A DNA stretch of 64,000 nt from Alphaproteobacteria bacterium UBA830 (GTDB taxonomy: Bacteria; Pseudomonadota; Alphaproteobacteria; MPNO01; UBA830): the NCBI GenBank assembly GCA_905181725.1, contig CAJIYX010000020.1, positions 4,513-68,512 on the forward strand, written 5' to 3'. The notes below the pieces were generated by a model. That model did no database searches and was not told the DNA's origin. It saw only the letters and a list, made by a program, of their open reading frames with translations. This document shows positions 13,019 to 55,981 of the stretch, one piece after another. The stretch's first letter is position 1. Every line of letters starts with the position of its first letter. Made by a program: the position numbers and the translations under genes.

Positions 13019-13564
13019 ATGACCGTAAGCGCCCCGTTCAATCTCGACCACTGGGTCGACAAGTTCCGCGATCAGGTGAAACCCCCGGTCGGCAACAAGC
13101 TGTTCTTCGAGGAAGACGGCATGATCTCCCAGATAATCGGTGGGCCGAACACGCGGGTCGATTTTCATGACGATCCGATGCAGTAATTTTTCTATCAGAT
13201 TAAAGGCGGCATGATCCTGAAGGTCATCGATGATGGCGAGATCACGGATGTCCGCATCAACGAGGGCGAAGTGTTGATGCTGCCGCCGCACATACGCCAT
13301 TCGCCCCAGCGTCCGGTGCCGGGATCCTATGGGCTTGTCGTGGAATCGCCGCGTATATCAGGCATGCTGGATATATTCGAATGGTACTGCTTCGAGTGCA
13401 TGGCCTGCATCCACCGCATCGAGGTTCCGGTGAACAACATCGTCGACGACCTACCGCCGCTATACGAGGCGTTCTACGCCGACGACGCGGCCCGCACCTG
13501 CGGCGATTGCGGCGCGGTGTATCCCGGCAAGGGAAAGCCTCCGCCGGGATGGGCAGATATCTGA
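13019..13564 (+). pseudogene. nbaC: 3-hydroxyanthranilate 3,4-dioxygenase interrupted by an in-frame TAA (13184..13186)
   Basis: ORFs 12926..13186 and 13211..13564 are in the same frame. The joined product MTVSAPFNLDHW...DFHDDPMQ*FFYQIKGG...LPPHIRHSPQRP...FEWYCFEC...CGDCG matches HAAO/NbaC end to end. Confidence 0.8.
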
Positions 13565-13596
13565 TCGCCGATCACCGAAAGCCTGCAACCTACAGC

Positions 13597-16314
13597 CTAG
13601 AGCAATCCCTTTAGCCGGTAGAGCGCTTCGAGCGCGGCGCGCGGGGTAAGCTCGTCGGGGTTGATGTCGGCCAGTTCGTCTTCGACCGCCGACGGAGCCG
13701 CATCCTGTGCGGGCAGGGGAACGGTTGCCGAAAACAGCGGCAGGTCGTCGGCAAGCTGGGCCAGCGCCCCGGACTGTTCTCCCTGCTCAAGGGTCCGCAG
13801 AACCTCCTGTGCGCGCGCGACCACGGCGAGCGGCAGACCAGCAAGTTTCGCAACGTGCACGCCGTAGGACTGGTCGGCGGCGCCGGCGATCACTTCGTGC
13901 AGAAAGACGACGTCGCCTTCCCATTCGGCCACGCGCATCGAATGGCAGGCGAGCGCATCAAGCCTCGCGGTCAGCGATGTCAGTTCATGAAAATGGGTGG
14001 CGAACAGTGACCGGCAGCGATTGACTTCATGCAGGTTTTCCAGCGTCGCCCAGGCGATGGACAGGCCGTCAAAGGTTGCGGTCCCGCGGCCGATCTCGTC
14101 TAGGATAACAAGCGACCGGTCGGTTGCCTGGTTCAGGATCGTCGCTGTCTCGACCATCTCGACCATAAACGTAGACCGCCCGCGCGCCAGATCGTCAGCG
14201 GCGCCAACACGGCTGAACAACCGGTCGACGATACCGATGTGGGCGTCGTCGGCGGGCACGAACGAGCCGGCCTGTGCGAGGATGACGATGAGCGCGTTCT
14301 GGCGCAGGAAGGTCGATTTACCCGCCATGTTCGGACCGGTGACCAGCCACAGGCGGTGGGCATCGGCGAGGTCGCAGTCATTGGCAACAAAGCCGCCGTC
14401 GCGGGCCGCCACCAGCGACGCCTCGACCACCGGGTGCCGCCCACCGGCAATCGCGAACGCCGTGCTGTCATCGACACGCGGGCGCACGTAGCGCCGGTCG
14501 ATAGCCAGTGCGGCCAGCGCCGCTGATACATCGAGCCGCGCCAGCGCATCGGCGGCAAGCGAAATTGCGTCGGCCCGCGCTGCGGTCTCGGTCACGAGAT
14601 CGTCGAACAGTTCCAGTTCCATCGCCAGTGCGCGCTCGCCCGCCCGGGCCAGCTTGCCTTCAAGCTCGCCAAGCTCGACGGTGGTGAACCGCATCGCGCT
14701 CGCCAGGGTCTGGCGGTGGATGAACGGGCTGTCTTCGCCCATCGGCATCTTCTCAGCCTGGGCCGTCGTAACATCGATGAAATAACCGAGCACATTGTTA
14801 TGGCGGATCTTCAACGACGCGATCCCGGTATCTTCAACGTAGCGCGCCTGCAGGGCGGCAATGTGTTTGCGGCTCTGATCCCGGAGCTGTCGCAGCGTGT
14901 CGAATTCAGGCGCATAGCCGTCACGGATAAAGCCACCGTCCCGGGACATCAGCGGCAATTCATCGGCCAGTGCACGGGCCAGCCGGTCGATCAGAACCTG
15001 ATGCTCGCCGATATCGGCAGCCGCCGTCGCGGTATCCGCCGCCAGGTCCGGCGCTGCTTCGAGAAGGGCGCGCAGATCGACCGCGACCGACAGCCCGTCG
15101 CGCACCGCACCGAGATCGCGCGGACCGCCCCGGCCGATAGTCAGCCGTATCATAGCCCGTGCCATATCGGGTGCCGCGCGCAGACGGTCGCGCACATCTT
15201 CGCGCGCACGCGATGACTCCGCGAACCAGGACACGGCATCATGGCGCGCCCGGATCGCCGCGGCGTCGGTCAGCGGTGCTGCCAGACGGGCGGCAAGCAA
15301 GCGGCCGCCCGCGCCGGTGACCGTACGATCGATAACCGATAGCAGCGAGCCGTCACGCGCGCCGTTCATCGTACGCACCAGTTCGAGGTTGCGCCGGGTC
15401 GCGGCATCGATTTCCAGCGCTTCGCCGCCGGCCATCCGGCGCGGCGGCTGCAGGCGCGGCAGCTTTCCTTTCTGCGTCAACTCGACATAGGCGACGATAC
15501 CGCCGCAGGCCGCCAGTTCGGCCCGGCCGTAATCGCCGAACGCATCGAGCGCCTTGACCGCGAAAATTTCTTCCAGCCGGCGACGGCCCGCCGTGCTGTC
15601 GAAGCTGGAATCAGACTGCACTGCCAGCCTGTCGCGGAAATCGGCACAGATGTCGTAAAACTCGGGCTGACCCAAGAGCCGCTCCGGCACCAGAAATTCA
15701 CCGGGCTCGATGCGCGCAAGGGCGGCTGCGAGGTCGGCGTGATCCACCGGTTGTGCAAAGAAGGCACCAGTCGATACGTCGAGCCAGGCGAGCCCCAGAG
15801 CACCGCCGGCCTCGGCAACCGCGGCCAGATAGTTGTGACGCCGCGCATCGAGCAGCGCTTCCTCGGTAATCGTGCCGGGCGTGACCACACGCACGACCTC
15901 GCGCCGGACGACCGATTTGGCGCCGCGCTTTTTTGCTTCCGACGGATTTTCTGTCTGTTCACAGACCGCTACCCGGATGCCTTTTCGGATCAGGCGCGAC
16001 AAATAGGACTCAGATGCATGAACCGGCACCCCGCACATCGGGATATCGGCACCCTCATGCTTGCCGCGCTTAGTCAGCGTGATGTCGAGCGCGGCGGCCG
16101 CCTGTTCGGCATCTTCGAAGAACATCTCGTAGAAATCGCCCATGCGATAGAACAGGAGGTCGTCCGGATGTGCCCGCTTGATTTCCAGGTATTGCGCCAT
16201 CATCGGCGTCGGCGCATCGCTCCCCACCTTGGCAGGCGTATTAACCGCCGGCTTTTTGTCGGGCGCAGGCACATCCGCCGCGTTGATTGGTATGTGTTCT
16301 GTATCCACCACCAC
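13597..16314 (-). CDS. mutS: DNA mismatch repair protein MutS
   Basis: 905 aa. [12 protein letters not shown]-terminus and Walker [10 protein letters not shown]. Terminates with TAG. Confidence 0.95.
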
Positions 16315-16489
16315 GCTAATTTATCACAGCCGCCCGCGCGTACGAACAGGCATCGGGGAATCGGTTCAAATTCTTGTCCTATAAATGTCGTAGAGTGCAT
16401 TGCGAAGAATAGCCCCTAGAATACTTTGTTGGAGCGCCGCGTTTTCCTCTCTATCCTGCGAGACGAATACCCAATTACCTGAGGCGAAC

Positions 16490-18832: not shown

Positions 18833-18858
18833 CGGAATTCAATCCCGGCAAAGACACT

Positions 18859-19386
18859 ATGACAAGGACCGGGATCAGGAAAGAAGAGCCCATGTCACAA
18901 CCGCGCATTCCGTCCGGGCGGCAAGCGACGCTGACGACCCGCGGTGAACAGGCTGATCGCGTGCGCGGGCTGGAGACCGGCGCCGACGATTACGTCACCA
19001 AGCCCTTCGCCCCTAAAGAGCTGATCGCCCGCATCCACGCCGTCATGCGGCGCGCCCGGCCGGCCCTGTCGGAGGAACGGCTGACCTATAGAGATATTGA
19101 AATGAACCTAACCGAGCACAAGGTCACTCGGCGTGACCGCGCTGTTGTTCTGGGTCCGACCGAATTCCGCCTGCTGCGCCACTTTATGGAGCACCCGGGC
19201 CGCGTGTTCACCCGCGATCAGCTGATCGATTCAGTCTGGGGCCATGGCATCTATATCGATTCCCGAACCGTGGATGTTCATATTCGCCGGCTCCGCAAGG
19301 AGCTGAACGGCAAGGGCAACCAGGATGTAATCCGTACCGTGCGGTCCGCCGGGTATTCGCTGGACGCAGAGAGCGCGATCTCCTGA
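18859..19386 (+). pseudogene. phoB: phosphate-regulon response regulator PhoB, 5'-truncated (receiver domain largely missing, winged-helix domain intact)
   Basis: 175-aa ORF. Homology starts at [26 protein letters not shown], the end of the receiver, and continues through a full OmpR/PhoB effector domain. Only 26 nt separate it from the maeB stop. Confidence 0.7.
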
Positions 19387-19408
19387 TTAAACGGGCCTGA
19401 CCGCTTGA

Positions 19409-20674: not shown

Positions 20675-20724
20675 GAGACTACTTGGGTAAGACGGTTACA
20701 GTGTGAGAAGCCGGCGCGACAGGC

Positions 20725-21405: not shown

Positions 21406-21497
21406 GGGCGGTCTCTCTATATCGAGCGGCGTTGTCTCACCGCTGTTATAAACACCGGATAGGCTGATGCAACAACGAATGGGTTGATGCGGCAAAT

Positions 21498-22823: not shown

Positions 22824-22944
22824 TTTAGGATTCTAGACGCCACCGGGTGTGTTTGGCCAGAAGCGACAACAGGAGACCACATGTTTAAACATATTAAAAT
22901 CAGGACCAAGACCAAATTGTCGGAAGCCGCGCGCCAAACACACG

Positions 22945-23184
22945 ATGCTGCTAGAAGATGATAGCACCCGCATCGGCCACTGGATCTTCGCCCCCGGCGA
23001 TCAAACCGGCTAGCACAACCACATGCATGGCTACATAGCCTTCAGCGCCGACAAAAGTGAAAAGCGTGTCGAATATGAAGACGGAAGAACCATGTTTTAT
23101 GTCTACGACGAAAAAACACAACAAAAACATATTTTTGACGATGAGGTTCGGGTTCTGGAAATTGAACACAAGCACGCCCCCTGA
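22945..23184 (+). pseudogene. small cupin-like ORF remnant with an in-frame TAG (23011..23013)
   Basis: Hand translation gives MLLEDDSTRIGHWIFAPGDQTG*HNHMHGYIAFSADKSEKRVEYEDGRTMFYVYDEKTQQKHIFDDEVRVLEIEHKHAP*. PGDQTGxHNH fits cupin motif 1, G-x5-HxH. Weak call. Confidence 0.3.
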
Positions 23185-23327
23185 CTGACCACCGAAAAAT
23201 TGATAACGTGCCTAGCCATCGCAGTTTGCAGTTCGTTGTCAGCATATGCTAATATTTGGCGTTGATTGTGACCTTTCCAAGGTATCAATTTGCTAACAGG
23301 GACGAACCACTAATCTGGAGTTTTAAG

Positions 23328-24332
23328 ATGAAAAGAGTAATTGCAGTGTGCGCCATGGTCGCGGCTGGAGCAGTTTTAACTGCTGGAGCGGTCAGCGCAA
23401 AGACTATCAATATGAAAATTGGTATGGTCACAATTAATGATTCAAACCATTTCAGCGCGAAGTGGATGAAAAAAGAAATTGAGGCGAAGACAAACGGTCG
23501 CATCAAAGTCGGTGTTTTTCCGGCTGCGCAGCTTGGTAAAATTCCTCGCCAAATTGAAGCAATTCAACTAGGTACCCAAGAGGTTTTTATGATTCCTCCG
23601 GGCTTTTTCATCGGCATTGATAAGCGCTTCATGGTCACCGACGCGCCGGGCATGTTTACAGATGAAAATCATGCAACTAGGGCCGTTAATCATCCGGATT
23701 TCTTTAATGTATTTTCACAAATCGGAGCAAAAAAAGGCTTCGTTGTGATGTCCATGTGGGGCTGCGGAGCAACATCCATTGCAACCATTAAGCCGTTCAA
23801 GAAGTTGGCTGATCTGAAGGGTAGAAAAATTCGAGTTTTGGCCACCCCTCTAGAGCGGGCGGTTATAGGTTCTTTGGGGGCAACCGGTGTCCCGATCCCT
23901 TATTCGGAAGTGTTGCCTTCGATGCAGCGGAAGACCATTGACGGTGTGCGCAGCTCCATAGGCGTCATGCATCCGTCAAAGTTTTGGACGGTTGCGAAAA
24001 ATATTACCCTGACGGGAATGGCACAGATCACATGTGGATCATTTACAAGTACAGCATGGCTTAATAAGCTCCCTTCAGATTTGAAGAAAATTGTGATGGA
24101 CGTCGCAAAAGCGTCAACGAAGCACTCGGGTAAATGGGGCTACGATCTCACTCGTTTAGCTGAAAAGAGATGGGCAGAAGAAAAAGGTGCGGTCGTAAAT
24201 CGCCTGTCTGACGCTGAACAGAAAGAGCTGATAAGTAGAGTTAAGCCTATTGGTGATAAAATTTTGGGACAAGATCCCAAAACCAAAGACATATTTGCTT
24301 TGCTGAAAAAGGTTGCAGCAGTCACCCGATAA
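23328..24332 (+). CDS. TRAP transporter solute-binding protein (DctP family), orphan
   Basis: ORF 23256..24332. The ATG at 23328 follows a GGAG sequence and gives the signal peptide MKRVIAVCAMVAAGAVLTAGAVSA. DctP-like throughout. No dctQ or dctM nearby. Confidence 0.85.
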   Translation: MKRVIAVCAMVAAGAVLTAGAVSAKTINMKIGMVTINDSNHFSAKWMKKEIEAKTNGRIKVGVFPAAQLGKIPRQIEAIQLGTQEVFMIPPGFFIGIDKRFMVTDAPGMFTDENHATRAVNHPDFFNVFSQIGAKKGFVVMSMWGCGATSIATIKPFKKLADLKGRKIRVLATPLERAVIGSLGATGVPIPYSEVLPSMQRKTIDGVRSSIGVMHPSKFWTVAKNITLTGMAQITCGSFTSTAWLNKLPSDLKKIVMDVAKASTKHSGKWGYDLTRLAEKRWAEEKGAVVNRLSDAEQKELISRVKPIGDKILGQDPKTKDIFALLKKVAAVTR

Positions 24333-24352
24333 GCAAATTTAAGAGAATGGAG

Positions 24353-24428: not shown

Positions 24429-24833
24429 ATGTCAAACCGGCCATCTCTCGCTTGGATGGAAAGATATCGGGAGACAGTCAATGCCGACCCCGAGATGTCC
24501 GTCATTGGCGACTGGTTCACGGAGAATTTCAAAATCTCCTTCGAAGGAACCGATTTTCTTATTTCGGTTCGCGAGGGCAAAATTACTGGGATTGAAGAGA
24601 ACCCACGCTTTGACCGCCCCACGGCATTTTCGCTGCGGGCGCCAATGTCTGTGTGGAACAAATTCATCAGTCCGAACCCACCACCGCTATTTCACGATTT
24701 TTTTGCGATGCTAATGCGTGTCGATGACTTCGTACTCGACGGCAATACGCTCACGACGATGCAGAACGCCCGCGCGCTGCACCGCATGATGAACATTCTT
24801 AAACAGATGGAGCCGCTCAATGCCCCAGCCTGA
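24429..24833 (+). CDS. SCP2 (sterol-carrier-protein-2)-like small protein
   Basis: 134 aa. General SCP2-fold pattern, judged by eye only. Overlaps the downstream hydrolase gene by 14 nt. Confidence 0.5.
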   Translation: MSNRPSLAWMERYRETVNADPEMSVIGDWFTENFKISFEGTDFLISVREGKITGIEENPRFDRPTAFSLRAPMSVWNKFISPNPPPLFHDFFAMLMRVDDFVLDGNTLTTMQNARALHRMMNILKQMEPLNAPA

Positions 24834-28819: not shown

Positions 28820-29515
28820 ATGTTTTCAGGACTTTTTCTCGCGATTGAGCAATTGGGCGATCCCCGAATTCGCGGCGTAATCGTCCGCGCGGTGGTGATA
28901 AGCGCCGCGCTGTTCATCGGGCTGATGTTCGCCATCGGCTGGCTTTTGAGCGGCTTGTCTGTGTTTGGGATCAGCTGGATCGACGGCGCAGTCTCTTTTC
29001 TGGGCGGGGGCACTGCCTTCGTGATCGGGCTGTTCCTGTTTCCGGCTTTCACCGGCATTATAATCTCCTTCATGCTCGAAGAAATCGCCAGCGCTGTCGA
29101 AGCCCGGCACTATCCAGACCTGCCAGCGGCACGCGAAGAGCCGGTGATGGAGATGGTCGGCAACGCGGTGCGGTTTGCAGGCGTGACTGTGATTTTGAAC
29201 CTGCTGGTGTTCATTTTCGTGGTGCCGATCATGCTGATCACCATCGTACTTATCCCGGTCATTCCCTTTGTCTTCTATGGCCTCAACGGGTATCTTCTCG
29301 GGCGCGAGTATTTTGAATTCGCGGCTATCCGGCGGCTGAACCCGGCGGCTGGACGGACGTTACGACGACATTTCAAACTCCGCGTTTTTATGTGCGGTAT
29401 AGCGATTGCCGTGCTGATGACGATACCGTTCGTGAACTGGGTGATGCCGGTGGTTGCGGCGGCCTATATGTTGCATGTATTTGAAGGCGTTCGCGGTCGC
29501 GCGGCAAACGCCTGA
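28820..29515 (+). CDS. EI24/CysZ-like membrane protein
   Basis: 231 aa with four or more TM segments. N-terminus MFSGLFLAIEQLGDPRIRGV is typical of the EI24/CysZ family. Confidence 0.6.
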   Translation: MFSGLFLAIEQLGDPRIRGVIVRAVVISAALFIGLMFAIGWLLSGLSVFGISWIDGAVSFLGGGTAFVIGLFLFPAFTGIIISFMLEEIASAVEARHYPDLPAAREEPVMEMVGNAVRFAGVTVILNLLVFIFVVPIMLITIVLIPVIPFVFYGLNGYLLGREYFEFAAIRRLNPAAGRTLRRHFKLRVFMCGIAIAVLMTIPFVNWVMPVVAAAYMLHVFEGVRGRAANA

Positions 29516-33464: not shown

Positions 33465-34430
33465 ATGAACGTCTTCGCCGCTGCGCTGGTGCCGCTGTTC
33501 CTGTCGGCGATTTTCACCGCCACCGCGATGGCGGACGAAATAAGCATCCGCACGTTTCCGGTCATCCTGTCACATGAAGAACACGATCGGCGTTAGGTTG
33601 GGACGCTGCGGTTCCGCGGCGGGCTGGACCTTCACTCCAAAGACGGTCGTTTCGGCGGGCTGTCAGGGCTGGACATATCACCGGACGGCCGCCGCCTGAT
33701 CGCTATCACGGACCTCGGAACATGGTTCACGGGACGCCTGACCTACGATAGCGCCGGACAGCTTAGCGGCATATCCAACACGCACATGCAGCCGGTTATC
33801 AGCACCGACGGCAACCCGCTCACCGGCCGGGCATCGACGGATCCAGAATCGATTGCCCGGTTGATTGACGTCTCACTGATCATCGGCTTCGAGCAACGCC
33901 ATCGGCTAAGTCGTTTCACTGCGCCCGGCGCACCGGCAAAACCTATCGGCTCACCGCAAGCGCTCGGCACCTCACCCCGGAATGGCGGGGCCGAGGCTGT
34001 CACCCGACTGTGGGGGAACGAGCTGTTGGTCCTGTCCGAACGGCTGGAGGCAGGCCCCGGCATCGCCGCCGGCTGGGTCGGCACCAATCGGACATGGGGC
34101 GCGGTGGGTCTGCGAAAGACCGGTCTTTTCCACCCGGTCGGCGCCGCAACCCGTGGTGACGGCACCGTCTTCCTGCTCGAGCGCCGCTTTACGGCCATCG
34201 GCGGGATCGCCGCCCGTATCAGCAGGGTTCCCCCGGGGACAATCGCGCCGGGTGGAGTTTTTGAAGGGTCAGAATTGGGGGAGCTATCGGCACCGCTGGT
34301 GGCCAATAACTTCGAAGAGATTGCGGTGCGCCGTGGCGCACCGGGCGAAACCCTGATCTACATCATCTCCGACGATAATTTTCACAGCCTCCAGCGCACG
34401 CTTCTGCTGATGTTCTCTCTTGCGGAGTAG
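33465..34430 (+). pseudogene. 'esterase-like activity of phytase' family secreted protein interrupted by an in-frame TAG (33594..33596)
   Basis: The ATG at 33465 gives the signal peptide MNVFAAALVPLFLSAIFTATAMA. A TAG sits at codon 44. The same frame continues into ORF 33786..34430 (GRFGGLSGLDISPDG ... ISDDNFHSLQRTLLLMF). Confidence 0.65.
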
Positions 34431-40139: not shown

Positions 40140-40760
40140 CTACCGGACCAGAATCCTGAACCGGAACGGCGAATCCGACCGTCCCGCGACCAGTTCGCTC
40201 TCGCCGGTCATGAGCGGTGCGCTGAGCGGAAGGCCTTCGCCACCAAGAATTTGTCCGTTCAGGGCCGTGCCGTGATAGCTGCCACAATCACGTGCCGCCA
40301 GGGCGCCGGCTTCCTCCTCTATCTAAAAATGTCGGCGCAACAGGTTGAACGGCCGGTCATCCTCTATCGCGAGATGGATATCGCCATAGGTATCCTTGCC
40401 CTCGCCGGTCGCCGCGCGCCCGATCCGGAACGGCAGCTCACGTACGTTTACCTCTTCGGCGACGAGGCGAATATCCAGATTTCCCGGCACAGGCCCGGAT
40501 TGTTCCAATGGGGGGGTTCAAATCGGGCGCTGTCAAACTTGTTGTTTTCAACCGCTTCGGCCTCGAGCGGGTCGGGTTTCGTCGATTGCAGGTCCGGCGC
40601 CGCGGCGGCTGCCGAGAGGAGACGTTTCCGGCTTAACCATATAGTCGCCCTGCTGCAGACGGACGCCGCCGGACCGGACGCGGTACACGCCGTCCGCGCG
40701 ATCGCCCATCCTGTAAACCAACTCGCCGTCGGAAAACAGCCGGTCACTCATGCCCGTCAC
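40140..40760 (-). pseudogene. FHA-domain protein gene, multiply disrupted (two frame changes plus an in-frame TAG at 40323..40325)
   Basis: Three minus-strand ORF pieces in different frames (40548..40760, 40448..40747, 40323..40508). After the TAG the same frame continues IEEEAGALAARDCGSYHGTALNGQ... The joined sequence gives an FHA pattern: FRIGRA...LLRRHF*IE...D.GS.HGT.LNG. Confidence 0.65.
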
Positions 40761-44803: not shown

Positions 44804-45672
44804 CCGCCGCCGAATTCCGCAGGAGCCAAACTCAAGAACGCCTCGAAACAAAAATCTCTGGGTGCTGCGTTCCTGGCGCAGCACGCGTCTCCTCAAGCGG
44901 ATGATCCGATCATCGTGCTGCCCAATGCCTAGGATGTCGCCAGCGCGTTGCTGCGGGCCCGCGCCGGGTTAAAGGCCATCGCCACCACGAGCGCCGGGGT
45001 CGGCTATACCGGCGGCTATCCGATGGGCGAAGTCATGCCGCTGGATGAGATGCTGGGCGATGTCAAACGCATGGCAGACCGCATCGCCACAGAGATGGAC
45101 GTGGCGCTGTCCGCCGATATGGAATCGGGCTATGGCATCGCGCCCGAGCAGATCGCCGATAGGATGACGAAGACCATCGCCGCCGGCGCCGTCGGTATCA
45201 ATATCGAGGATACCGATCACCACCAGCCAAAAACGCTGTTTGGTTTCGAACTCGCGGTCGAGAGAATCGCGGCGGCTCGGGCGGCGGCGGACGCCACCGG
45301 CATTCCGTTTGTGCTCAACGCGCGGACCGACGCCTATTGGCACAATGGGACAGGCGGGGGCGAGGCGGTGTACGACGACACCCTGCGCCGCGCCGAGGCG
45401 TTTCGCGCGGCCGGCGCCGACTGCATTTTTGCGCCGGGCCCAGCGGACCGTGACGTCATCGCCCGCCTTGCCGCCGATATCGACGCGCCGCTGAACGTCA
45501 TGGGCGGGGCGAAATCGGCGTGCGGCGGGTGACCGTCGGCGCAATCATGGCTCCCGCGACCTATCACACACTGGAACAGGCAGCCAATGAACTGCGTGAT
45601 TCCGGCACGTTCGGCTTTGCCGAGGGCGTGATGTCTCCTGCTGATCTAAGCGGACTGATGAAGGGCGTATAG
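44804..45672 (+). pseudogene. PEP mutase / isocitrate lyase superfamily gene: no start codon, in-frame TAG (44930..44932), indel/frameshift near 45505
   Basis: The frame after the hisF stop reads ...SLGAAFLAQHASPQADDPIIVLPNA*DVASA...ATTSAGV...SADMESGYG...PLNVMGG. It then changes frame to EIGVRRVTVGAIMAPATYHTLEQAANELRDSGTF...* (stop 45670..45672). The 5' boundary is undefined. Confidence 0.75.
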
Positions 45673-45740
45673 CCGTTCAGACAAAACCGTCCGGATGAAA
45701 CTGTGATGACAGGGGCCCGGCAATCTGATATCGCGTGGCT

Positions 45741-46076: not shown

Positions 46077-46079
46077 CCG

Positions 46080-46496: not shown

Positions 46497-46506
46497 AAAA
46501 GCTGCG

Positions 46507-46896: not shown

Positions 46897-46967
46897 AGTG
46901 ACTCCTGTAGCAAGATTGTTATTCCAGATCATAGAGTACTCTGCAGGATGAAAGAATCTCCGCCCCG

Positions 46968-48433
46968 TTATCGCCCCGGCGCGATCCGCCGATACCCCAG
47001 CGCCTCGGCAATGTGCACACGCCGCACACCCTCCGACCCATCTAGATCGGCGATCGTGCGCGCGACGCGGCGGATGCGGTGCCAGCCGCGGGCGGACAGG
47101 TGCAGACGGTCCGCGGCGTCGGGCGTGGCGATGGCGTCGAGCAGCTCGCCATCGGCATGGGCGTTGACGGAGACGCCGCTGGCATCACGTGATACCAGTT
47201 TTTCGAATCGGGCCGCCTGCACGGCACGCGCGGCGGCGGCGACGCGGACGGCGATATAGGCGGGCTTGACGGCGGGCACATCCACATGCAGATCGATGCG
47301 GTCGAAGAGCGGGCCCGAGATTTTGGACTGGTAATCGGCGGCGCAGCGCGATTCGCGGCCACAGGCCAGTGCCGGGTTGACGAGATAGCCGCATTTACAG
47401 GGGTTCATCGCGGCGATCAGCTGGAACCGGGCCGGATAAGTGACATGCGCATTGGCGCGGGCAACCACGGCGCGCCCGGATTCAAGCGGCTGGCGCAGGG
47501 CTTCGAGGGTACGGCGGTCGAATTCCGGCAACTCACCCATGAACAGCACCCCGTTATGGGCGAACGACGCTTCACCGGGCCGGGCGCGAAGGCCGCCACC
47601 GATCAGCGCCGGCACGTTGCCGAATGATGCGGGTCACGGAACGCGCGGCGCATCAGGAGCCGGCCGCCCTCCAATTGTCCGGCCACCGAATGGATCATCG
47701 AGGCCTCCACCGCCTCCACCGGGGTCAGCCGCGGCAGCAGGCCGGGCAGACGGGCCGCCAGCATCGACTTGCCGGAACCGGACGGACCCACCATCAGCAG
47801 GTTGTGGCCACCGGCCGCCGCGATCTCCAATGCGCGTTTGGCGCTTTCCTGGCCCTTTACGTCAGGCAGATCCGGGATCGGCGTGTCATCCACCGCGAGG
47901 GCCGGTTCAGGGCGGGTGAGTACCTGCGTGCCTGTGACATGGTTGACCAGCGACAGCAACGAGGCCGGGGCCAGCACGTCGATATCGCCGGCCCAGGCCG
48001 CTTCGCCGCCCTGTTCGGCGGGGCACACGATACCGCGCCCGGCGGTATTCGCGCCGATGGCAGCCGGCAGCACCCCGGCCACCCGGTTAATGGCGCCATC
48101 CAGCGCAAGCCCCCCCAATATGGTGTGTAACTCAAACGCATCATTGGGCATCACATCCATCGCCATGAGGACGGCTACCGCAATCGGCAGGTCGAAATGG
48201 GAGCCTTCCTTGAGCACATCGGCCGGCGCCAGATTGACCGTGATCCGCCGCGGCGGTAGCGCCATTCCCATGGCCGCCAGTGCGGCACGCACCCGTTCGC
48301 GCGATACCGCGACCGCCTTATCCGCCAACCCGACGATATTGAACGCCACCACACCAGACGACACCTGTACCTGACAGTCGATATCGAGCACGTCGATGCC
48401 GTTAAAGGCGACGGTGTGGGTGCGGGAGACCAT
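46968..48433 (-). pseudogene. comM: YifB/ComM Mg-chelatase-like AAA+ ATPase split by a frameshift near 47605..47615
   Basis: N-terminal piece 47603..48538 (MVSRTHTVAFNG..., Walker A GPSGSGKS, ends ...FRDPHHSATCRR*). C-terminal piece 46968..47615 in another frame (VPALIGGGLRARPGEASFAHNGVLFMGELPEF...). The family consensus reads straight through HHSAS..AL.GGG. Confidence 0.8.
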
Positions 48434-48686
48434 GCGATAGCGGCCCGATGAGGGTACGGGTTGAGTACCAGTGGTTGTGGAATCGGTGACGTTAGTATAT
48501 CTGGGTTGTGCGAAGCCGTCCATGTTCCGTGTCCTCATTCATAGAGCCTCTGATAAAACATAACCGGAACATTTAAGAGTTCAACCGGTGATTCATCCCC
48601 AAAAACTGTCGGCAGGCTTTACGGAATCGTTTGGGCCGGTTCTGCAACACATACCCAACCCATTGATTCTCATCACTATTCAAGAG

Positions 48687-48701
48687 TGGCACGAATCTTG
48701 C
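48687..48701 (+). promoter_or_regulatory. sigma54 (-24/-12) promoter TGGCACGAATCTTGC
   Basis: Exact match to the TGGCAC-N5-TTGC consensus, 46 nt upstream of the ATG at 48747. Confidence 0.6.
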
Positions 48702-48746
48702 TCCTAATGTTGGAGTACCCCGCGTTCACGATGAAAAAGTAAACCG

Positions 48747-49503
48747 ATGACCCTGGACCTCAAACCCGCTTTTCTCTCCACGGTTTCAGTCCTGGCGGTC
48801 GCGCTCACTGTCGCAGCAGCCCCGGCAAGCGCCGATCAGATAATCAGCCTTTATAGCGGTAACGGCTCTGTGGGCGGCGCGGATAGCCAGATCACCTTCC
48901 TTCGGGGCCCGCTTGGATACGGGATTCGGTTCGGCCTTCACGGCGACGGATTTCGCCAATGCAGGCACTAGCTCATCCGCCACGGTGATCAACAATCATC
49001 CGGCCTGGATTACGGCCACCGCGTTTAACGCGAATGCGGCCACCGCTGCGGTCCCGGCGCAATAGATTTCAAATTCGCCCACCGGCGGCGCTTCCTCGGG
49101 CGATAACGGATCGTCGGGCCTGTATGCGATCGAATTCACAATTACCGACGCCATCATCAGTGCTGCCAGCATCAATTTTGACTTCGCAGTCGACAACATC
49201 CTCGGGACGATATCGCCAAGTTTCGGCGTCAATCAGGGGCTGTTCCTGAACGGCGTAGCACTTTCCGGCATTACCAGCGGGGGCGGGTTCAATTCGGTCC
49301 ACACTTTCACCCGCACCGATACCGCGCCGCTGCTGCAAACCGGCGTCAATACGCTTTACATCAATCTCACCGATGTCGGCGGACCGGCCGGGATGATCTT
49401 CTCGACGACCATCCCGACCGAAGGCAGCACAGCAGTTGCTGTCCCCGAACCCGGCCTGGTCGGTCTTGGCTTTGTCCGCCGGCGGCATTCAGCCCGGGCG
49501 TAA
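48747..49503 (+). pseudogene. PEP-CTERM-anchored secreted protein: frameshift near 48900..48912, in-frame TAG (49063..49065), shortened C-terminal anchor
   Basis: Signal peptide MTLDLKPAFLSTVSVLAVALTVAAAPASA in frame 0 (ORF 48747..48971). The body continues in the +1 frame (LDTGFGSAFTATDFANAG...AAVPAQ*ISNSPTGG...LYINLTDVGGPAGMIFSTT) and ends in VPEPGLVGLGFVRRRHSARA*. Confidence 0.65.
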
Positions 49504-49542
49504 ACTGCGCTAGTCTCCCCGTAACAAAAAGCGGGAGAGAAT

Positions 49543-50337
49543 ATGCTCAAACTCTATGACGGCACGACGTCGGTCTGCGCCATCAAGGTGCGGCTCGCCC
49601 TGTTCGAAAAGGGCGTGGCGTTCGAGAGCCACAATATCGATCTGCGCAAAGGCGATCAGCTTGATCCCGCGTATCTCGCGCTGAACCCCAACGGCGTGGT
49701 TCCGACGCTGGACGATGACGGCGGGATCGTCATCGAATCCTCGGTGATCATGCAATATCTTGAAGACTGCCATCCTACCCCGTCGCTGCTGCCGGAAAGC
49801 CCGGCCGGCCGGGCCGCCATGCGCCTGTGGATGAAACGGGTGGACGATACGGCACATCCGAGCATCGGCAGCCTGACCCATGCGACGGTCTACCGCCCCG
49901 CGTTCCTTGCCCTCGATGAAGACGCGCGTGCAGAACGGCTAGCCAAAATTCCGGACCCGAAACGTCGCCAGCGTTTTGCCGCCGTTTACAAGGACGGGCT
50001 CGACGCGCCCATCGCAATTGCATCCGTGAAGAACCTGAACATGCTGATCGTCGACATAGAAGAGGCGCTTACCGTGGGTGATTTTCTGGCCGGAACTTCA
50101 TACAGCCTCGCAGATGCCGCGGTCACACCCTACGTCAACCGGCTGTTCGATATGGGGCTACTGGGCCTGTGGGCGGTCTCCGCCCCCAGGGTGTTCCGCT
50201 GGTATTCCGCGATCCGCGAACGGGCGAATTTCGCACCGGCGATCATCGACTACCTGACCGACAGCGACCGCGCGGCGTTCAATGCGATGGATCCCGAAGC
50301 CCCGGGCCGGGTGATGGAGATTCTGGCCGCGGGCTGA
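49543..50337 (+). CDS. glutathione S-transferase family protein
   Basis: 264 aa. N-terminal thioredoxin-like GST domain (LNPNGVVPTLDDDGGIVIESSVIMQYLED). Confidence 0.85.
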   Translation: MLKLYDGTTSVCAIKVRLALFEKGVAFESHNIDLRKGDQLDPAYLALNPNGVVPTLDDDGGIVIESSVIMQYLEDCHPTPSLLPESPAGRAAMRLWMKRVDDTAHPSIGSLTHATVYRPAFLALDEDARAERLAKIPDPKRRQRFAAVYKDGLDAPIAIASVKNLNMLIVDIEEALTVGDFLAGTSYSLADAAVTPYVNRLFDMGLLGLWAVSAPRVFRWYSAIRERANFAPAIIDYLTDSDRAAFNAMDPEAPGRVMEILAAG

Positions 50338-50372
50338 TAGTCCGTCCACCCGGATATCACGGCGCGCGGATT

Positions 50373-50792
50373 TCAGGCGGTGCGGGGCACCGGGAAGACC
50401 ATGTCATAGGCCCAGTTATAGCAGAATGCGTAGACCAGAAAAAACGCCGACAGGCTGATATCGAGCAGGAAGGCATCGATATAGGTCAGGTCGAGCCACC
50501 AGGCGATCAGAAACAATCCGGCGATCACCAGTCCCGCTTCGAACAGCACCGCGTGGACGATGCGGATACGGACGCCGCGCTTCGCCATGCCGCGGTGCTT
50601 AGCGTCCCACAGATCGAACATCCAGTTGTAGGACAGATTCCAGCTCATCGCGAGAACGCTAAACATCAGGCTGAGCGCGCCCATGACCTCCATCGGCCGG
50701 TCGAGCAGCCAGCCGCCGGGTACCGCCACCAGAAACAGGGCGATGGCCTCAAAAATCAAGGTATGACGCAGCCGGTCGGGGAAACTGCGCAC
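50373..50792 (-). CDS. PACE-family (bacterial transmembrane pair, AceI-like) efflux protein
   Basis: 139 aa with 4 TM segments and two tandem BTP repeats (RHTLIFEAIAL..., VHAVLFEAGLV...). Confidence 0.7.
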   Translation of the reverse strand: MRSFPDRLRHTLIFEAIALFLVAVPGGWLLDRPMEVMGALSLMFSVLAMSWNLSYNWMFDLWDAKHRGMAKRGVRIRIVHAVLFEAGLVIAGLFLIAWWLDLTYIDAFLLDISLSAFFLVYAFCYNWAYDMVFPVPRTA

Positions 50793-50803
50793 GGGCTAGC
50801 GGC

Positions 50804-51298
50804 CTAACGCTCCACCGTGCAGTCGATCCGCCAGGTCACCGCGCCGGCCTTGTCGCGGGCATCGTAATTGACCCGCGATTTTTTGAGCTGGGCGCGGGCC
50901 TCTTTGGAGAGGGCGGTCTGCAGATCGGCAGGCAGGTCCTCAAAATCGAATGACACCACGCGCGGCGCCTTCGGTTTCGGTGCAGCTTTGGTTTTGGCGG
51001 AAGGTTTTTTCTTTGCGCCGCCGGAATCATCTTTGCCCCAGATATCATCCCAGCCGGATTTATATTCGGGCGTTTTGATATTACTGAAATAGCCGTAATG
51101 GCCAACCGCCGCGCCACCGATCGAGTCGCGCGCAGACTTGCCGCCGTCACCGCTATCCGAGCTGGCCGAGGCGGATGTCGCCTCAGTCGATTTCGCATCG
51201 GTCGATGTGGTCTCGGTTTTCGATTCGGCGGATTTGGTCTCGGCCGGCTTGGGCGCTGCCTTGGTCTCGGATTGGGTCGATTTTTTCGTATCGCTCAT
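50804..51298 (-). CDS. hypothetical protein with Lys/Ala/Pro/Thr-rich low-complexity regions
   Basis: 164 aa. Low-complexity N-terminus, central GHYGYFSNIKTPEYKSGWDDIWG block, KKKPSAKTKAAPKPKAP linker. No family recognised. Confidence 0.5.
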   Translation of the reverse strand: MSDTKKSTQSETKAAPKPAETKSAESKTETTSTDAKSTEATSASASSDSGDGGKSARDSIGGAAVGHYGYFSNIKTPEYKSGWDDIWGKDDSGGAKKKPSAKTKAAPKPKAPRVVSFDFEDLPADLQTALSKEARAQLKKSRVNYDARDKAGAVTWRIDCTVER

Positions 51299-51382
51299 GA
51301 CTGTAGCTACTCAATGGATTTCGGGGACGACGTCTCGTACACCCGCGCGAAACCGGATGCAATCTCCGAGCAATCAGGATCG

Positions 51383-52438
51383 TCAGCCGGCGACCGTCGC
51401 ATGAATGCCGAGCAGCGGCAGAATGGTCACCGGATCGCGGCGGCCGAAGCCGCATTCGGTGGCGATACCGAATGAACCGACATGGTCCGCCGACGACGCC
51501 AGCGCCACCGCCAGGCGCGCCGCGGCGCCGTCCGCGCCGTCGGTAAAGTGGACAAGGCCGAGATACAAATCCGTCTCCGCCGGCAGGGAGAGTGCGCCAA
51601 GCGGGGCAAAATACGCGGCATCGCTGCGGTCACGCGGCACCGGCATATGGATGAAATTCACCGGGCGCGCACTCGCTTGCGCAATGCCGTTGGCATAGGC
51701 GACGCAGGTGGAAAGATCGGCGGGCTCGATAATATGTTTGTGACCGGGATCGCCGTAACACAGATGAATGCCCGCCTCGATATCCATGGGCACGAAGCCG
51801 AGAAGCCGGGCGATCCGCGCGGTGGAGGCGGTCAAAACGTCTTCATAATGCAAAGGCATACCGCCATCGGCGGCGACAACTTCGTGACAGACATCCCACT
51901 GGATGGCGAGCTGGTCGTGGGGGATCCCGGCGGTAATAGTCTGAACTTCCTGCGCCAGCGCCGCTTCGATAATCGGCTCGGCAGCGGCACGTTCAGGCAT
52001 CTCGAAAAACCCAGCGGTCAGCGCGATGGCGGACGGGATGGATACCTGGAACCGCACCGATGCCGGGATGATGCCGTCGGCTTTCAACTTTGCAAATGTG
52101 GCATAGGAGGCCACCGCTTCGGCGGCATAGCCCATGGTCTCGATCCTGACATCCGCGGCATCGATGCCGTCCCGGATCACATAGAACGGCCGTTCCAGGG
52201 CGTCCTTGTAACCGTGCAGCGATTTGCTGGCGGATTTAAGCTCGAAGTCCGGATGATCATCGAAGGTCTGTTTCTGCCAGCGGATCCAGTAGGCCCGCTC
52301 GCCGGTCTCGCCGTCCGGCCAGCGCAGCGCCCGCTCACCAACCGAGGCGGCAAGCGCGCGGAAAACTGCTTCGGCGTTTTCGAGCGGAATAGAGCCGACA
52401 AAATGAATAGGGTATTTCGGCCTGTACTGATCGGTCAT
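51383..52438 (-). CDS. uncharacterised protein, possibly MetE-C-terminal/UROD-like TIM-barrel family
   Basis: 351 aa. The HLCYGD and ECGFGRR motifs resemble the zinc-ligand motifs of cobalamin-independent methionine-synthase-like proteins. Weak call made by eye. Confidence 0.4.
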   Translation of the reverse strand: MTDQYRPKYPIHFVGSIPLENAEAVFRALAASVGERALRWPDGETGERAYWIRWQKQTFDDHPDFELKSASKSLHGYKDALERPFYVIRDGIDAADVRIETMGYAAEAVASYATFAKLKADGIIPASVRFQVSIPSAIALTAGFFEMPERAAAEPIIEAALAQEVQTITAGIPHDQLAIQWDVCHEVVAADGGMPLHYEDVLTASTARIARLLGFVPMDIEAGIHLCYGDPGHKHIIEPADLSTCVAYANGIAQASARPVNFIHMPVPRDRSDAAYFAPLGALSLPAETDLYLGLVHFTDGADGAAARLAVALASSADHVGSFGIATECGFGRRDPVTILPLLGIHATVAG

Positions 52439-52468
52439 CCGTGAACTCCCCTCACAATTCAGTTTAAG

Positions 52469-53416
52469 TCAGCTCGCACTCTGGCGCCGCTCGATCGCGT
52501 CCCACAGCATCTTCTCAACATGTACACCGTCGAGCCGATTGATCTCCTGAATGCCAGTCGGCGAGGTCACGTTTATCTCGGTCAGGAAATCGCCGATGAC
52601 ATCGATGCCGACAAAGGTCAGTCCGCGATCAATCAGCGCCGGCGCAATCTGTTCGCAGATTTCGCGTTCCCGCGTGGTCAGTTCGGTTTTCTGCGCGCCG
52701 CCACCGGCGTGGAAGTTGGCGCGCGCATCTCCCTTGACCGGGATGCGGGCGACGGCACCCGCGGGTTCACCGTCCACCAGGATGATGCGTTTGTCGCCCT
52801 GGCGGACCTCCGGCAGGTACCGCTGGATGATAAACTGCTCGCGGTATTTCTGCTCGAACATCTCGAGTAGCGCGCCGAGGTTTTCGTCATCAGGCGTGAT
52901 GTGAAAGACATCGGCGCCGCCATTGCCGAACAGCGGCTTGACGATGATATGCCCGTGCTCGGCACGAAAGGCATCTATCGCTTCGCGGCTCCGGGTGATC
53001 AGCGTGTCGGGCAATACGCCGTCAAAATGGGTGACGAACAGTTTCTCCGGCGCGTTCCGCACCTCGGCCGGATCATTCACCACCAGTGTATCGGGGTGGA
53101 TGTGCTCCAGCAGATGCGTGGCCGTTATGTAGTTCATATCGAACGGCGGGTCCTGTCGCATCAGCACCACGTCAACGGTCGAAAGGTCCAGCAGTTCCAT
53201 CGCGCCGAGGGTGTAGTGATTACCCTTTTCGCGGCGGACTTCCATCGGCTGCGCTTTCGCAGAGAGCCGTCCGTCGCGGAACACGAGATCGTTCGGCTCG
53301 TAGTGGAACAATCCATGGCCGCGCGCCTGTGCCTCCATCGCCAGCATAAAAGTGGAATCGCCATCAAGATTGATGCTCGAGACGTGGTCCATCTGTAGGG
53401 CGACGGCGAGGCTCAT
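52469..53416 (-). CDS. gshB: glutathione synthase
   Basis: ORF 52469..53548. The ATG at 53416 is preceded by GGAG. Starts [26 protein letters not shown]-grasp C-domain. Confidence 0.9.
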
Positions 53417-53497
53417 GATCGAAATCTCCGGTAATTGATGCGACCGTTTTTGCCGCATCCCTTTTTGCACCCTGCGGAACGCGGGATCAATGGGGGC

Positions 53498-53537
53498 GCG
53501 CCCGGGCGTAATAGGGAACGCGCCCGGGCGTGTTCCC
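53498..53537. repeat. GC-rich palindromic element: GCGCCCGGGCGT twice (53498, 53520), the second copy inside the hairpin GGGAAC-GCGCCCGGGCGT-GTTCCC
   Basis: Read directly. Lies in the divergent region between gshB and the His-motif membrane-protein gene. Confidence 0.5.
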
Positions 53538-53615
53538 ATTTGCCGCAAACGTCTCTCTGAATTGATGCAAATATGCCGCGAATGGAGCGCAAACTTAACA
53601 CCGGTTTAAAGCCAC

Positions 53616-54786
53616 ATGGATAGTTTCGGCAGCCGGAAATCAATCCATTCGAAGGGAAAATTCGTGGGTCGAATTACCACAGCACCCCTTCGGGCCCGGG
53701 TAGGCACCCATGGGTCCGTTGGAGCGGCGGTCGGACCTGGCTGGCTTTCAGGGCCCCGGTTCGACCGCCACTTTATCGGCACCACGGCAGCCATCGCGAT
53801 CCTGTCGGGGCTCATCGTTGCGGCGAAGCCAGGGCTGTTCCTGCCGGTCCTGTTTCTTGACCTCTGGCTACTCGGCTATCACCACGTGGTGTCGACATAT
53901 ACCCGACTGTGCTTCGACGCTGACAGCCTGCGCCGGCGCGGCTGGATGATCTATGCGCTACTGCCGGCGGTTTGTGCCACCGTCACGATCGTTGGCGTGG
54001 CCTTCGGGGTGGGGCTGTTGGCGACGGTCTATCTCCACTGGCAATGGTTTCACTATACCCGGCAGAGTTACGGGATCGCCCAGGCTTGCCACCGGGCAGC
54101 GGTCGCTGACGGCGCCGCGGTAGTTGAGAATGAACGGCGGGGCGCGCACGAACGGCTGGACCATCTGATTTTCTAGCTGGTGCCGCTATGGGGCATTCTG
54201 CACCGTGCCCATCAGGCGCCGGAAACATTTCTCGGCCTGCCGGTCTGGCACCCGCCGGTGCCGGGGATTGCGGTCGACATCGCTGCCGTCTGCGCGGTGG
54301 CCGGACTCTCATGGTGGGTGGCAAGCCGCATATCGATTTGGCGGCAGAGACGCCTTGCGGTCGGTCACTCCTGCTATGTGCTGAGCCATTTTGCCGTGTT
54401 CTATGTCGGGTATGTCGCGATCGAGAGCATCGATGCCGGCTGGATCGCGCTGAATATCTGGCACAACGCCCAGTACATCGCGTTTGTCTGGCTTCAGAAC
54501 AATCGAAGCTTCGGCGATAGAGCCGGGGCAAGTGGGCGTGCTGGCGGGCGCGCTGGCCGGCAGTTTATGTCCTGGCTGTCCCGTCGGCGGAATCTCTGGG
54601 CCTATCTTGGCGTCTGCCTAGGCATTTCCACCGCATTCTACGCGGGTCTGCATTATTCCGCGGCCGCGACAGGCCTCGGCCTGGCGGTGCTGATGGTGGT
54701 ACCAGACAATCAATTTTCACCATTAAATCGTGGATGCCCTGATCTGGCGGCGGCCGCGCAAGGTAAACGCGGCGGGTTCCGAATAG
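53616..54786 (+). pseudogene. polytopic membrane protein with four His-containing motifs (family not recognised): in-frame TAG (54174..54176), frameshift near 54698, in-frame TAA (54724..54726)
   Basis: ORFs 53616..54176 and 54180..54929 share a frame and are separated only by TAG plus one codon. After ...GLAVLMVV the +1 frame reads YQTINFHH*IVDALIWRRPRKVNAAGSE*. Motifs: LLGYHHVVSTYTRL, HWQWFHYTRQSYG, NIWHNAQYIAFVW, NFHHxIVDALIWRR. Confidence 0.6.
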
Positions 54787-54790
54787 CATT

Positions 54791-55981
54791 ATGGCGCGCA
54801 TTTTTTTCACATCCCGCAGCGCCGAACGGCCCGGGTATTTCTCCCTCGCGCGCGACGGAGAAACCATCGCCGCGCTCGACGGGCTGCGGGCCGCCGCAAT
54901 CTTTCTGGTCCTCGGCCGCCACGCGGTGAATCCATACAGACCGTTTGAAGGCGATGGCTTCGGGACGATGTTCGATGTCTTTGGCTGGGATGCGGCGACA
55001 CCCCTGATCAATGGCTGGATTGGCGTCGACCTGTTTTTCGTGCTTTCGGACTTCCTGATCAGCGCCGGTATTATCCGCCGGTCATCAACTACCGGAAACT
55101 TCCGGTTTGGCCGGTATATAGCGCGGCGCGCGCTGCGGATTTTGTTTGCCTATTACGCCATGCTGGCCATCGCTGCCGCCAGGGCGATCCCGTTCTATGC
55201 CGTCGGCGACGACATGATCGGCGTTAGGGTAGTTTATCACGCGCTGTTTCTGCAGGATTATCTGCCGTCGAATATCGTTGTTGCGTTCTGGTCTCTCGGC
55301 GTCGAGGAAAGGTTCTACATCGCCGCGCCGTTCGTTCTGGTGCCGCTGCTCGCCCTTCGACGTCGCAGCCTGCAGTATGGTGTCCTCGTCCTGCTGATCC
55401 TGACGCCGCTCGCATTCCGCCTGAACATTGCCGCCGGCGACACGGTTATCGCCGATGGCGAGCCCGTCGCCTTTCTGCGGCTCGACCGTCACCGGTTCCG
55501 GTGGTTGTCGGACCGGCACGTCATCGCTAGAATATTCTGGGCCGGCATTGGCGCTATGGCCGGGCTCTGGCTGTCGGCACCGATACTCGGCCGGATTGGA
55601 TCCTTCGACCGGATTTTTCTGCAATTGGTTCTCGCCGCCGGTTTCGGGGCAATTCTGCTCGGCGAATTGCTGCGCCATGACAGGGTTGCCGGGGGCGCTG
55701 GGAGCGTCGGGGGCCCTGATGGAATTCCAGACCGGCTATTATCGCTTCCGGTTCTGCGCCCGGTAGCTGTTCTGTCGTGTAGCCTGTACCTGGTTCACAT
55801 GACGACAATACCAGCGGCTCAAACCCTAAAAGAGGGGATTCTGGGAGTCTATTCAGGCTGTTTAGCCACGAATTTTACCATTTTTGTGCCAATTTAATTG
55901 ATTTTATCGGTTCTGGGCGCATTAATTCTGTATCGCGTGGTCGAAAAGTCGTTCCTGATGCTCCGGGACGCAAAATTCTAG
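54791..55981 (+). pseudogene. acyltransferase-3 (OafA/YrhL-like) family membrane protein with a premature TAA (55895..55897) 27 codons before the ancestral stop
   Basis: ORF 54791..55897 (LDGLRAAAIFLVLGRH, GVDLFFVLSDFLIS, WSLGVEERFYI). The in-frame continuation LILSVLGALILYRVVEKSFLMLRDAKF* reproduces the family's usual C-terminal helix and Y.vvEkP-like motif. Confidence 0.55.

Follow-up and report, generated by a model that had tools for sequence, protein, structure and literature searches.

Why are accessory genes so often broken in a stretch of bacterial chromosome whose core genes are intact? The question is raised by 64,000 nucleotides of DNA, referred to here as the window, from Alphaproteobacteria bacterium UBA830 (Pseudomonadota; Alphaproteobacteria; MPNO01; UBA830), positions 4,513 to 68,512 of the forward strand of contig CAJIYX010000020.1 in GenBank assembly GCA_905181725.1. 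An earlier note, made from the sequence alone, had counted ten inactivated loci among about 66, all of them in accessory functions, and had read them as ongoing gene decay. Our own tally comes to about 65 loci: 53 are complete and intact, 10 are disrupted, and the other 2 run over an end of the window. The disrupted loci are nbaC, phoB, comM and genes for a cupin-like protein, a phytase-like esterase, a cyclic-nucleotide-binding (cNMP-binding)/FHA signalling protein, a PEP-mutase/isocitrate-lyase-family protein, a PEP-CTERM-anchored secreted protein, a membrane protein with conserved histidine motifs (the His-motif protein) and an acyltransferase-3. The lineage of the window is very probably undergoing active reductive evolution in which accessory genes decay. 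Lesions that recur in other samples, intact orthologues in relatives, remnants that evolve neutrally and a nested sharing of lesions among strains all support the view of ongoing decay.

The evidence was drawn from about 80 kb of one genome, that is, the window with 7 kb upstream and 9 kb downstream, and from syntenic contigs recovered via exact-protein lookups and one metagenome scan. Near-identical contigs came from two samples, ERZ1699356 (L002, L088, L097 and L098; 99.87-99.98% identity to the window, zero gaps) and ERZ23495129 (L099 and L162; 99.97-100% identity). Further strains share 91-99% identity (L001, L003-L006, L087, L089-L096, L108, L109, L153 and L156), and distant relatives share about 70-85% (L113, L114, L117 and L159-L161). 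One of the latter, L161 (about 80% identity), has its syntenic stretch on a 262-kb contig. The continuation of genes past their lesions was read from six-frame translations, families were assigned with Pfam and orthologues were mapped by tblastn, which was also used with reference proteins to read the damage in L113 and L117. The ratio of nonsynonymous to synonymous substitution rates (dN/dS) was estimated by the Nei-Gojobori method between the window and relatives, with small counts per gene. When MutS was compared with species-representative genomes, the relatives were of Rhodospirillales type, at no more than 68% identity among the matches listed. The contigs bear record prefixes (TARA_, AACY and CE-) which we take to denote ocean plankton metagenomes; on that reading the bacterium, which is uncultured, is marine.

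All nine premature stop codons that had been listed are present at the positions claimed, and each gene continues past its stop or frame change. The ancestral sense codon was found in relatives for eight of these stops, encoding Glu, Gln, Ser, Trp (twice) and Tyr (three times). The frameshift lesions are deletions of 1, 2 and 28 bp. Several genes do carry more than one lesion, as the note had held, and the acyltransferase-3, comM and PEP-mutase genes carry more than it listed. A comparison with close relatives yielded intact orthologues for nine of the ten loci; for the PEP-CTERM gene the only intact copy is a distant one in L161 (49% identity). In L161 the whole region from the FHA gene to the acyltransferase-3 gene is fully intact. 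Its syntenic stretch keeps the same gene order, with acyltransferase-3 (417 amino acids), His-motif (373), PEP-CTERM-like (236), ComM (543), PEP-mutase (286), cNMP-FHA (267) and Smr (191) genes of full length.

Are the lesions real? The source is a metagenome-assembled genome (MAG), and assembly artefacts do occur among these contigs: a 155-nt 'insertion' in the acyltransferase gene of L099 (at 55402-55456 of the window) is explained by a scaffold gap of 100 N whose flanks are duplicated and reflects no biological difference. Stops and frameshifts produced by sequencing, consensus or assembly error would nonetheless not be expected in independent data, and the ERZ1699356 and ERZ23495129 assemblies carry the same lesions as the window. 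Because they recur in the assemblies of two other samples, the lesions are not sequencing errors. Strains of 95-97% identity share some of them as well (the FHA TAG in L001, the His-motif TAA in L153 and the 28-bp PEP-mutase deletion in L001 and L003), nine of the lesions are substitutions and not homopolymer indels, and the remnants show dN/dS of about 1. At the lesion sites, sense codons or undeleted sequence were found in relatives of 70-98% identity. The lesions are real, derived and heritable, and there is very little chance that they are technical errors.

An even slighter chance attaches to the idea that the genes are functional because in-frame TAG and TAA codons are decoded, by reassignment or readthrough, and the frameshifts are programmed. 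The composition of the premature stops does lend it something: TAG and TAA account for all nine, and TGA does not occur among them. By codon usage, however, TGA would be expected for only 17-24% of nonsense mutations, so that its absence from nine has P of about 0.1-0.2. TAG and TAA also serve as ordinary terminators, ending 22 of the 53 intact genes (TGA 31, TAG 12, TAA 10). The ancestral codons at the premature stops specify five different amino acids (Glu, Trp, Gln, Ser and Tyr), and the affected genes also show start loss, large deletions and neutral dN/dS. No tRNA gene, no match to an Rfam family and no recoding RNA element was found across the 64-kb window. Sequencing error and recoding are effectively excluded.

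Selection has left opposite marks on the remnants and on the core genes. The older remnants have dN/dS of about 1-2 (phoB remnant 1.86, PEP mutase 0.99, comM 2.07, His-motif 1.03). The pooled value over 29 intact genes is 0.12, with core genes in the range 0-0.1 and hslV, PHO4, typA and hslU at 0-0.05. The older remnants drift neutrally, and the core genes are tightly constrained. The values for nbaC and the phytase-like and acyltransferase-3 genes, taken here as single-lesion genes, are lower (0.17-0.41), which fits recent inactivation. The note had described every interleaved housekeeping gene as full length; this holds for the core genes, with the reservation that hrcA extends from 63028 to beyond 64000 and runs off the window, so that its completeness cannot be judged.

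Among strains of 91-98% identity, the set of broken genes differs. In other strains Smr, lutC, Tim44, FxsA, bactofilin and rdgB genes are broken or missing, yet they are intact in the window, and strains with those losses keep an intact phytase-like, FHA or nbaC gene. The sharing of lesions is nested or strain-specific and therefore fits events that accumulated along a tree. The same genes have also been hit repeatedly. The comM gene has been broken by different damage in L001, L003, L109, L113, L114/L122 and L117, and among the related lineages examined only L161 has it intact. The FHA gene is damaged in L001, L003, L005 and L117, the acyltransferase-3 gene is a 3' remnant in L117, and the PEP-mutase gene is missing from L113. 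In L100 (GCA_054189545.1; more than 99.8% identity to the window) the rdgB/Ham1 gene at 4675-5216 is split into 125 and 51 amino acids, and decay therefore reaches genes usually deemed housekeeping.

One of the losses concerns phosphate sensing and uptake. The note had reported a 5' truncation of phoB. The 5' part of phoB is indeed lost, but the locus is a phoR'-'phoB fusion open reading frame (ORF) of 175 codons (18859-19386, plus strand) made by a 6,148-bp deletion. The ancestral order is seen in L156 (98-99% identity): maeB, phoR (473 amino acids), pstC, pstA, pstB, phoU and phoB (232 amino acids), followed by the convergent PHO4 gene. An intact PhoB of 232 amino acids is encoded by L094, L156 and L157. 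The deletion corresponds to L156 4095-10242 and has removed phoR-pstC-pstA-pstB-phoU and the 5' part of phoB from the window. Its junction, at 18930-18940, sits in an imperfect 11-nt direct repeat, GCTGACG[A/G]CCC. The first approximately 16 codons of the fusion ORF are the start of phoR, and phoB follows from about residue 82; Pfam finds only positions 74-110 of the 111-position Response_reg profile, together with a full DNA-binding domain (Trans_reg_C). The ORF has also retained a start codon.

A second deletion, of 5,998 bp (L156 4374-10371), is found in L087, L089-L091, L093, L095 and L096 and is also flanked by short repeats. It keeps about 105 phoR codons and phoB from residue 123 (the regions compared were L156 4046-10699 and L091 3402-4051). 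The two deletions, in sublineages of a single species, are independent, because each type keeps sequence that is lost from the other. In the sister lineage L159 and L160 the situation is reversed: the pst-pho genes are kept and the PHO4/PhoU_div low-affinity transporter, present in the window, is missing.

The remaining nine loci differ in the number and age of their lesions. The nbaC pseudogene (3-hydroxyanthranilate 3,4-dioxygenase; 13019-13564, plus strand) has a single in-frame TAA at 13184-13186. Its product matches Pfam 3-HAO over residues 2-153 (E = 3e-44), end to end apart from the stop. The stop codon is an ancestral GAA (Glu) in five relatives, TAA being restricted to the window, L088 and L162, and dN/dS is 0.17. 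The small cupin-like remnant (22885-23184, plus strand) has TAG at 23011-23013 in place of TGG: its motif is GDQTG*HNH, against GDQTGWHEH in an intact 113-residue homologue in L087. This TAG is common to L088, L092, L095 and L096, which represent four other samples. The intact homologue has a weak Cupin_2 match (E = 3.5e-4) under the gathering score. In the phytase-like esterase pseudogene (33465-34430, plus strand) a TAG at 33594-33596, directly past the signal peptide, replaces the CAG of five relatives; an intact orthologue of 321 amino acids in L001 aligns end to end at 96% identity, and dN/dS is 0.41.

The cNMP-binding/FHA signalling pseudogene (40143-40751, minus strand) has two frame changes, internal deletions and a TAG (CTA on the plus strand) at 40323-40325. 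By tblastn the intact 275-residue protein of L004 and L006 maps onto it as three pieces in frames -3, -1 and -3, with residues of about 64-106 gone and a further gap of 11 residues. The stop arose from TCG and is shared with L001; the L161 orthologue is intact (267 amino acids). The PEP-mutase/isocitrate-lyase-family pseudogene (44834-45672, plus strand) has lost its start (ATG to AAG at 44834-44836), carries a TAG in place of TGG at 44930-44932 and has a 28-bp deletion near 45515. The deletion is common to the window, L001 and L003 and is the older lesion for that reason. The TAG is found only in the window haplotype; L003 has TAA at the same Trp codon. The L161 orthologue is intact (286 amino acids), and the dN/dS of the remnant is 0.99. 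The pseudogene of comM/yifB (Mg-chelatase-like AAA ATPase; 46968-48538, minus strand) has a 1-bp deletion near 47615, seen against L001 and L109, and in-frame gaps in its C-terminal half. Its alignment with the intact 543-residue orthologue of L161 runs over two frames with 23 gap positions. Intact ComM orthologues occur in several clusters at 85-91% identity, those of 543 amino acids at 85-88%, and the dN/dS of 2.07 belongs to the N-terminal part of the remnant.

The PEP-CTERM-anchored secreted protein pseudogene (48747-49503, plus strand) has a 1-bp deletion near 48913, a TAG at 49063-49065 and a shortened C-terminal anchor. This TAG is the sole premature stop for which no ancestral codon was recovered; the L161 orthologue has 236 amino acids with a full anchor. 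In L161 (8213-9791, compared with window 48538-49543) a VWA protein of 265 amino acids with a PEP-CTERM-like anchor is encoded between the GST gene and the PEP-CTERM gene, and no trace of this VWA gene was found in the window at 48538-49543. In L001 most of the PEP-CTERM gene is deleted too.

The His-motif membrane protein pseudogene (53616-54786, plus strand) carries a TAG at 54174-54176 (from TAT), a 2-bp deletion near 54698 and a TAA at 54724-54726 (from TAC). The gene is intact in L108 (396 amino acids), L113 (353) and L161 (373), and the remnant has dN/dS of 1.03. Its lesions are identical in L099, which matches the window at 100% identity over 52310-55456, and the TAA is also present in L153. 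No Pfam family was matched by this protein. It is conserved (L108 1021-2214; L161 2865-3986; about 373-396 amino acids) and carries the motifs GYHHVVSTYTR, WHNAQY and NFHHYIVD. Wherever it is present, the gene adjoins the acyltransferase-3 gene, and its product may be a partner in surface-polysaccharide modification. The acyltransferase-3 pseudogene itself (54791-55981, plus strand) has a TAA at 55895-55897 (from TAC), a 57-nt in-frame deletion near 55456 and a GGC to GAC change at 55049-55051, a Gly-to-Asp replacement that hits the FFVLSGFLI motif. It is intact in L161 (417 amino acids) and in L113 (about 404-417 amino acids), and dN/dS is 0.41. All ten loci have homology to functional families over most of their length, with intact orthologues where the Pfam match is weak (cupin) or absent (His-motif). 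Besides 3-HAO and Trans_reg_C/Response_reg, the Pfam families at syntenic loci were Phytase-like, PEP_mutase, ChlI/Mg_chelatase, cNMP_binding/FHA and Acyl_transf_3. Judged from sequence, the ten loci are thus putative pseudogenes that combine this homology with a disabling lesion and its recurrence.

Two other places in the window are worth recording. A gene for a TRAP-type DctP solute-binding protein (23256-24332) has no adjacent DctQ or DctM gene and is followed by a conserved ORF of 134 amino acids (24429-24833) with no Pfam family. The layout is the same in all relatives, L159 included, and the DctP gene could be an orphan binding protein or reflect an older loss of permease genes. Inside an EI24-family gene (28820-29515), the window runs unbroken through about 29036-29379, a point at most a few hundred bases from which contigs of both ERZ1699356 and ERZ23495129 break off. 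The site may vary among strains and so interrupt short-read assemblies.

How dense is the decay? Within the window, intact genes span 77.6% of the sequence. In the 3' flank, about 9 kb past the window (L098 1-8872), at least three further remnants were seen. Between dnaK and grpE lies a DUF1848 fragment of about 129 codons, a GST-like fragment has kept its C-terminal part but not its N-terminal domain, and another ORF is interrupted by an in-frame stop that leaves pieces of 160 and 88 amino acids. Over about 80 kb there are approximately 13 pseudogenes among approximately 89 loci (about 15%). Pseudogene backgrounds of 3-5% are usual in bacterial genomes. The binomial probability of at least 10 disrupted loci among 66 is 2.7e-5 for a background of 3% and 1.6e-3 for one of 5%. 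The figure of ten is a minimum, because whole genes are gone as well: phoR, pstCAB and phoU in comparison with L156, the VWA gene in comparison with L161 and an LMWPc gene in comparison with L159.

The process that would account for these observations is a loss of purifying selection on accessory genes. Among these genes, environmental sensing is represented by phoR/phoB and cNMP-FHA, high-affinity uptake of phosphate by pstCAB-phoU, and the cell surface by the PEP-CTERM gene and by acyltransferase-3 with its membrane partner. DNA uptake and recombination are helped by comM, and nbaC, PEP mutase, the phytase-like esterase and the cupin belong to peripheral catabolism. Ordinary mutation would account for the knock-outs, by nonsense changes, start loss, slippage deletions of 1-28 bp and, where short direct repeats recombined, the loss of about 6 kb at a time. 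The broken remnants would next drift neutrally and be eroded by further deletions. An excess of transversions among the nonsense changes was considered as a mark of a repair defect and rejected; of the single-base changes that can create a stop codon, the majority are transversions. The cause would be relaxed selection, perhaps aided to some degree by selection for loss, following an ecological change that affected the whole clade. Passage in the laboratory or in enrichment, which the note had offered as one possible cause, is excluded by the presence of the same haplotype and lesions in several environmental metagenomes.

Could the genes have been lost mainly by positive selection, through streamlining or Black-Queen dynamics that remove costly surface and competence functions, with relaxed selection in a minor part? 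The repeated, independent hits on the same loci would suit such a process: there are two approximately 6-kb deletions of phoR-pstCAB-phoU-phoB', comM has been broken in at least six ways, and the phosphate systems have been lost in a complementary manner (PHO4/PhoU_div without pst in the window, the opposite in L159 and L160). Selection on the core genes is moreover efficient. Parallel loss is, however, also expected when selection on dispensable genes is relaxed in related lineages, and the repeated independent losses fit either shared relaxed selection or selection for loss. Nor has there been a sweep, as strains of 98-99% identity such as L094 and L156 still keep intact pst-pho alleles. A high coding density with few pseudogenes is typical of streamlined marine genomes. 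Here remnants persist: the window has 77.6% intact coding sequence and 10 of about 65 loci disrupted, so that it shows neither the high coding density nor the near-absence of pseudogenes of such genomes, and coding sequence this sparse speaks against streamlining that has run to completion. We regard loss driven mainly by positive selection as unlikely.

An equally unlikely cause, in our estimation, is a recent shift to dependence on a host or partner with a smaller effective population size, as in young symbionts and pathogens. The pseudogene fraction of about 15% lies far over the 3-5% background by the binomial test, and regulators, surface proteins, competence and high-affinity uptake are functions generally known to be lost early in host restriction. 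Against this, the lineage appears in many plankton-type metagenome records, and neither an expansion of insertion sequence (IS) elements, nor an AT shift, nor a raised dN/dS of core genes is seen. A somewhat broader proposal would place a whole, widely distributed clade of marine alphaproteobacteria (at least 70-100% nucleotide identity) early in reductive evolution. Its co-occurring strains would have inactivated the same genes time and again, each on its own: comM, the pst-pho phosphate-scavenging regulon, the cNMP-FHA gene and genes for surface modification. This would point to a recent clade-wide shift, in the open ocean, towards reliance on a host, on a partner or on a microhabitat rich in nutrients. 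We put it forward tentatively, as something that may well not be so.

Several observations also weigh against the view that the lineage as a whole is in active reductive evolution. The pooled dN/dS of 0.12 is not clearly raised and lacks the mark of strong drift that host-restricted bacteria typically bear. The GC content of the window is about 60% (range 0.53-0.66) without a shift towards AT. No transposase-like ORF was found among the genes of the window or its flanks, and no IS element, which agrees with the note's statement that no IS or phage remnant is present in the window. The strongly constrained core genes, the GC content of about 60% and the lack of IS elements all speak against drift as severe as that of established symbionts. 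The density of pseudogenes is patchy, with none in the first 13 kb of the window or in the 7 kb upstream, where all genes are intact housekeeping genes. The evidence comes from about 80 kb of one genome, and habitat and lifestyle are read solely from record names (Tara and GOS-type accessions). Active reductive evolution with decaying accessory genes nevertheless remains the reading that we hold to be very probable.

Pseudogene-rich genomes are known from specialised or host-restricted bacteria such as Mycobacterium leprae, Sodalis glossinidius, Yersinia pestis, Salmonella Typhi and the symbiont Polynucleobacter necessarius. As in those genomes, nonsense mutations, frameshifts and deletions have inactivated many accessory, regulatory and surface genes and spared the housekeeping genes, genes carry multiple lesions, and intact copies exist in relatives. 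Unlike those genomes, the window shows neither IS proliferation nor an AT shift, its core dN/dS is low, and its records are of ocean plankton metagenomes. Kuo and Ochman are said to have found short-lived, strain-specific pseudogenes in Salmonella, with extinction dynamics. Most of the lesions described here are likewise specific to strains or sublineages, older remnants are progressively deleted, and strains of 95-99% identity differ in which genes are broken. The density is several-fold higher here, however, with some 15% of loci affected and, in several strains, 20-30% of the genes in the 29-50 kb stretch, and the same genes have been hit in parallel in lineages as far apart as about 70-75% nucleotide identity.

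Among free-living marine bacteria, genome reduction is reported for the CHUG Roseobacter lineage (bioRxiv 10.1101/2021.01.15.426902). The setting in marine plankton and the loss of accessory sensing and uptake functions are shared with CHUG and with the streamlined SAR11 and Prochlorococcus. Whereas the latter are compact and have very few pseudogenes, here erosion is in progress and remnants are abundant. Among alphaproteobacteria, Candidatus Endolissoclinum faulkneri is reportedly a Rhodospirillales-type tunicate endosymbiont with extensive pseudogenes (PMC3851785) and a long-term obligate intracellular life. It resembles the lineage of the window as an alphaproteobacterium of the same broad group with an eroding genome; MutS of the window is 64% identical to that of a MAG labelled Ca. 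Endolissoclinum sp. The erosion described here is young by comparison: each gene carries between one and five lesions, and intact alleles continue to segregate. A topical literature search yielded no paper about the lineage of the window. The process is of a known kind and involves no new mechanism; the instance is unusually well resolved in its population-level polymorphism and parallel losses.

What does this mean for the biology of the lineage? In practical terms, annotation pipelines run on MAGs of this kind will split genes or call them wrongly, as when the phoR'-'phoB fusion is taken for a 'PhoB' of 175 amino acids. To our knowledge, pseudogene-laden genomes have rarely been documented in planktonic marine bacteria, and they are well known in pathogens and insect symbionts. 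The usual explanation for small genomes of marine planktonic bacteria is streamlining without remnants. In this clade the intermediates are visible: across samples, related strains carry alleles of the same genes that are intact, newly broken, broken several times over or deleted. If the tentative view of a clade early in reductive evolution were true, it would provide a natural population-level time series of genome reduction that starts without IS elements. If the decay extends genome-wide, these bacteria would offer a natural system in which to see which functions go first, by which mutations, and whether early genome reduction in the ocean is the work of selection or of drift.

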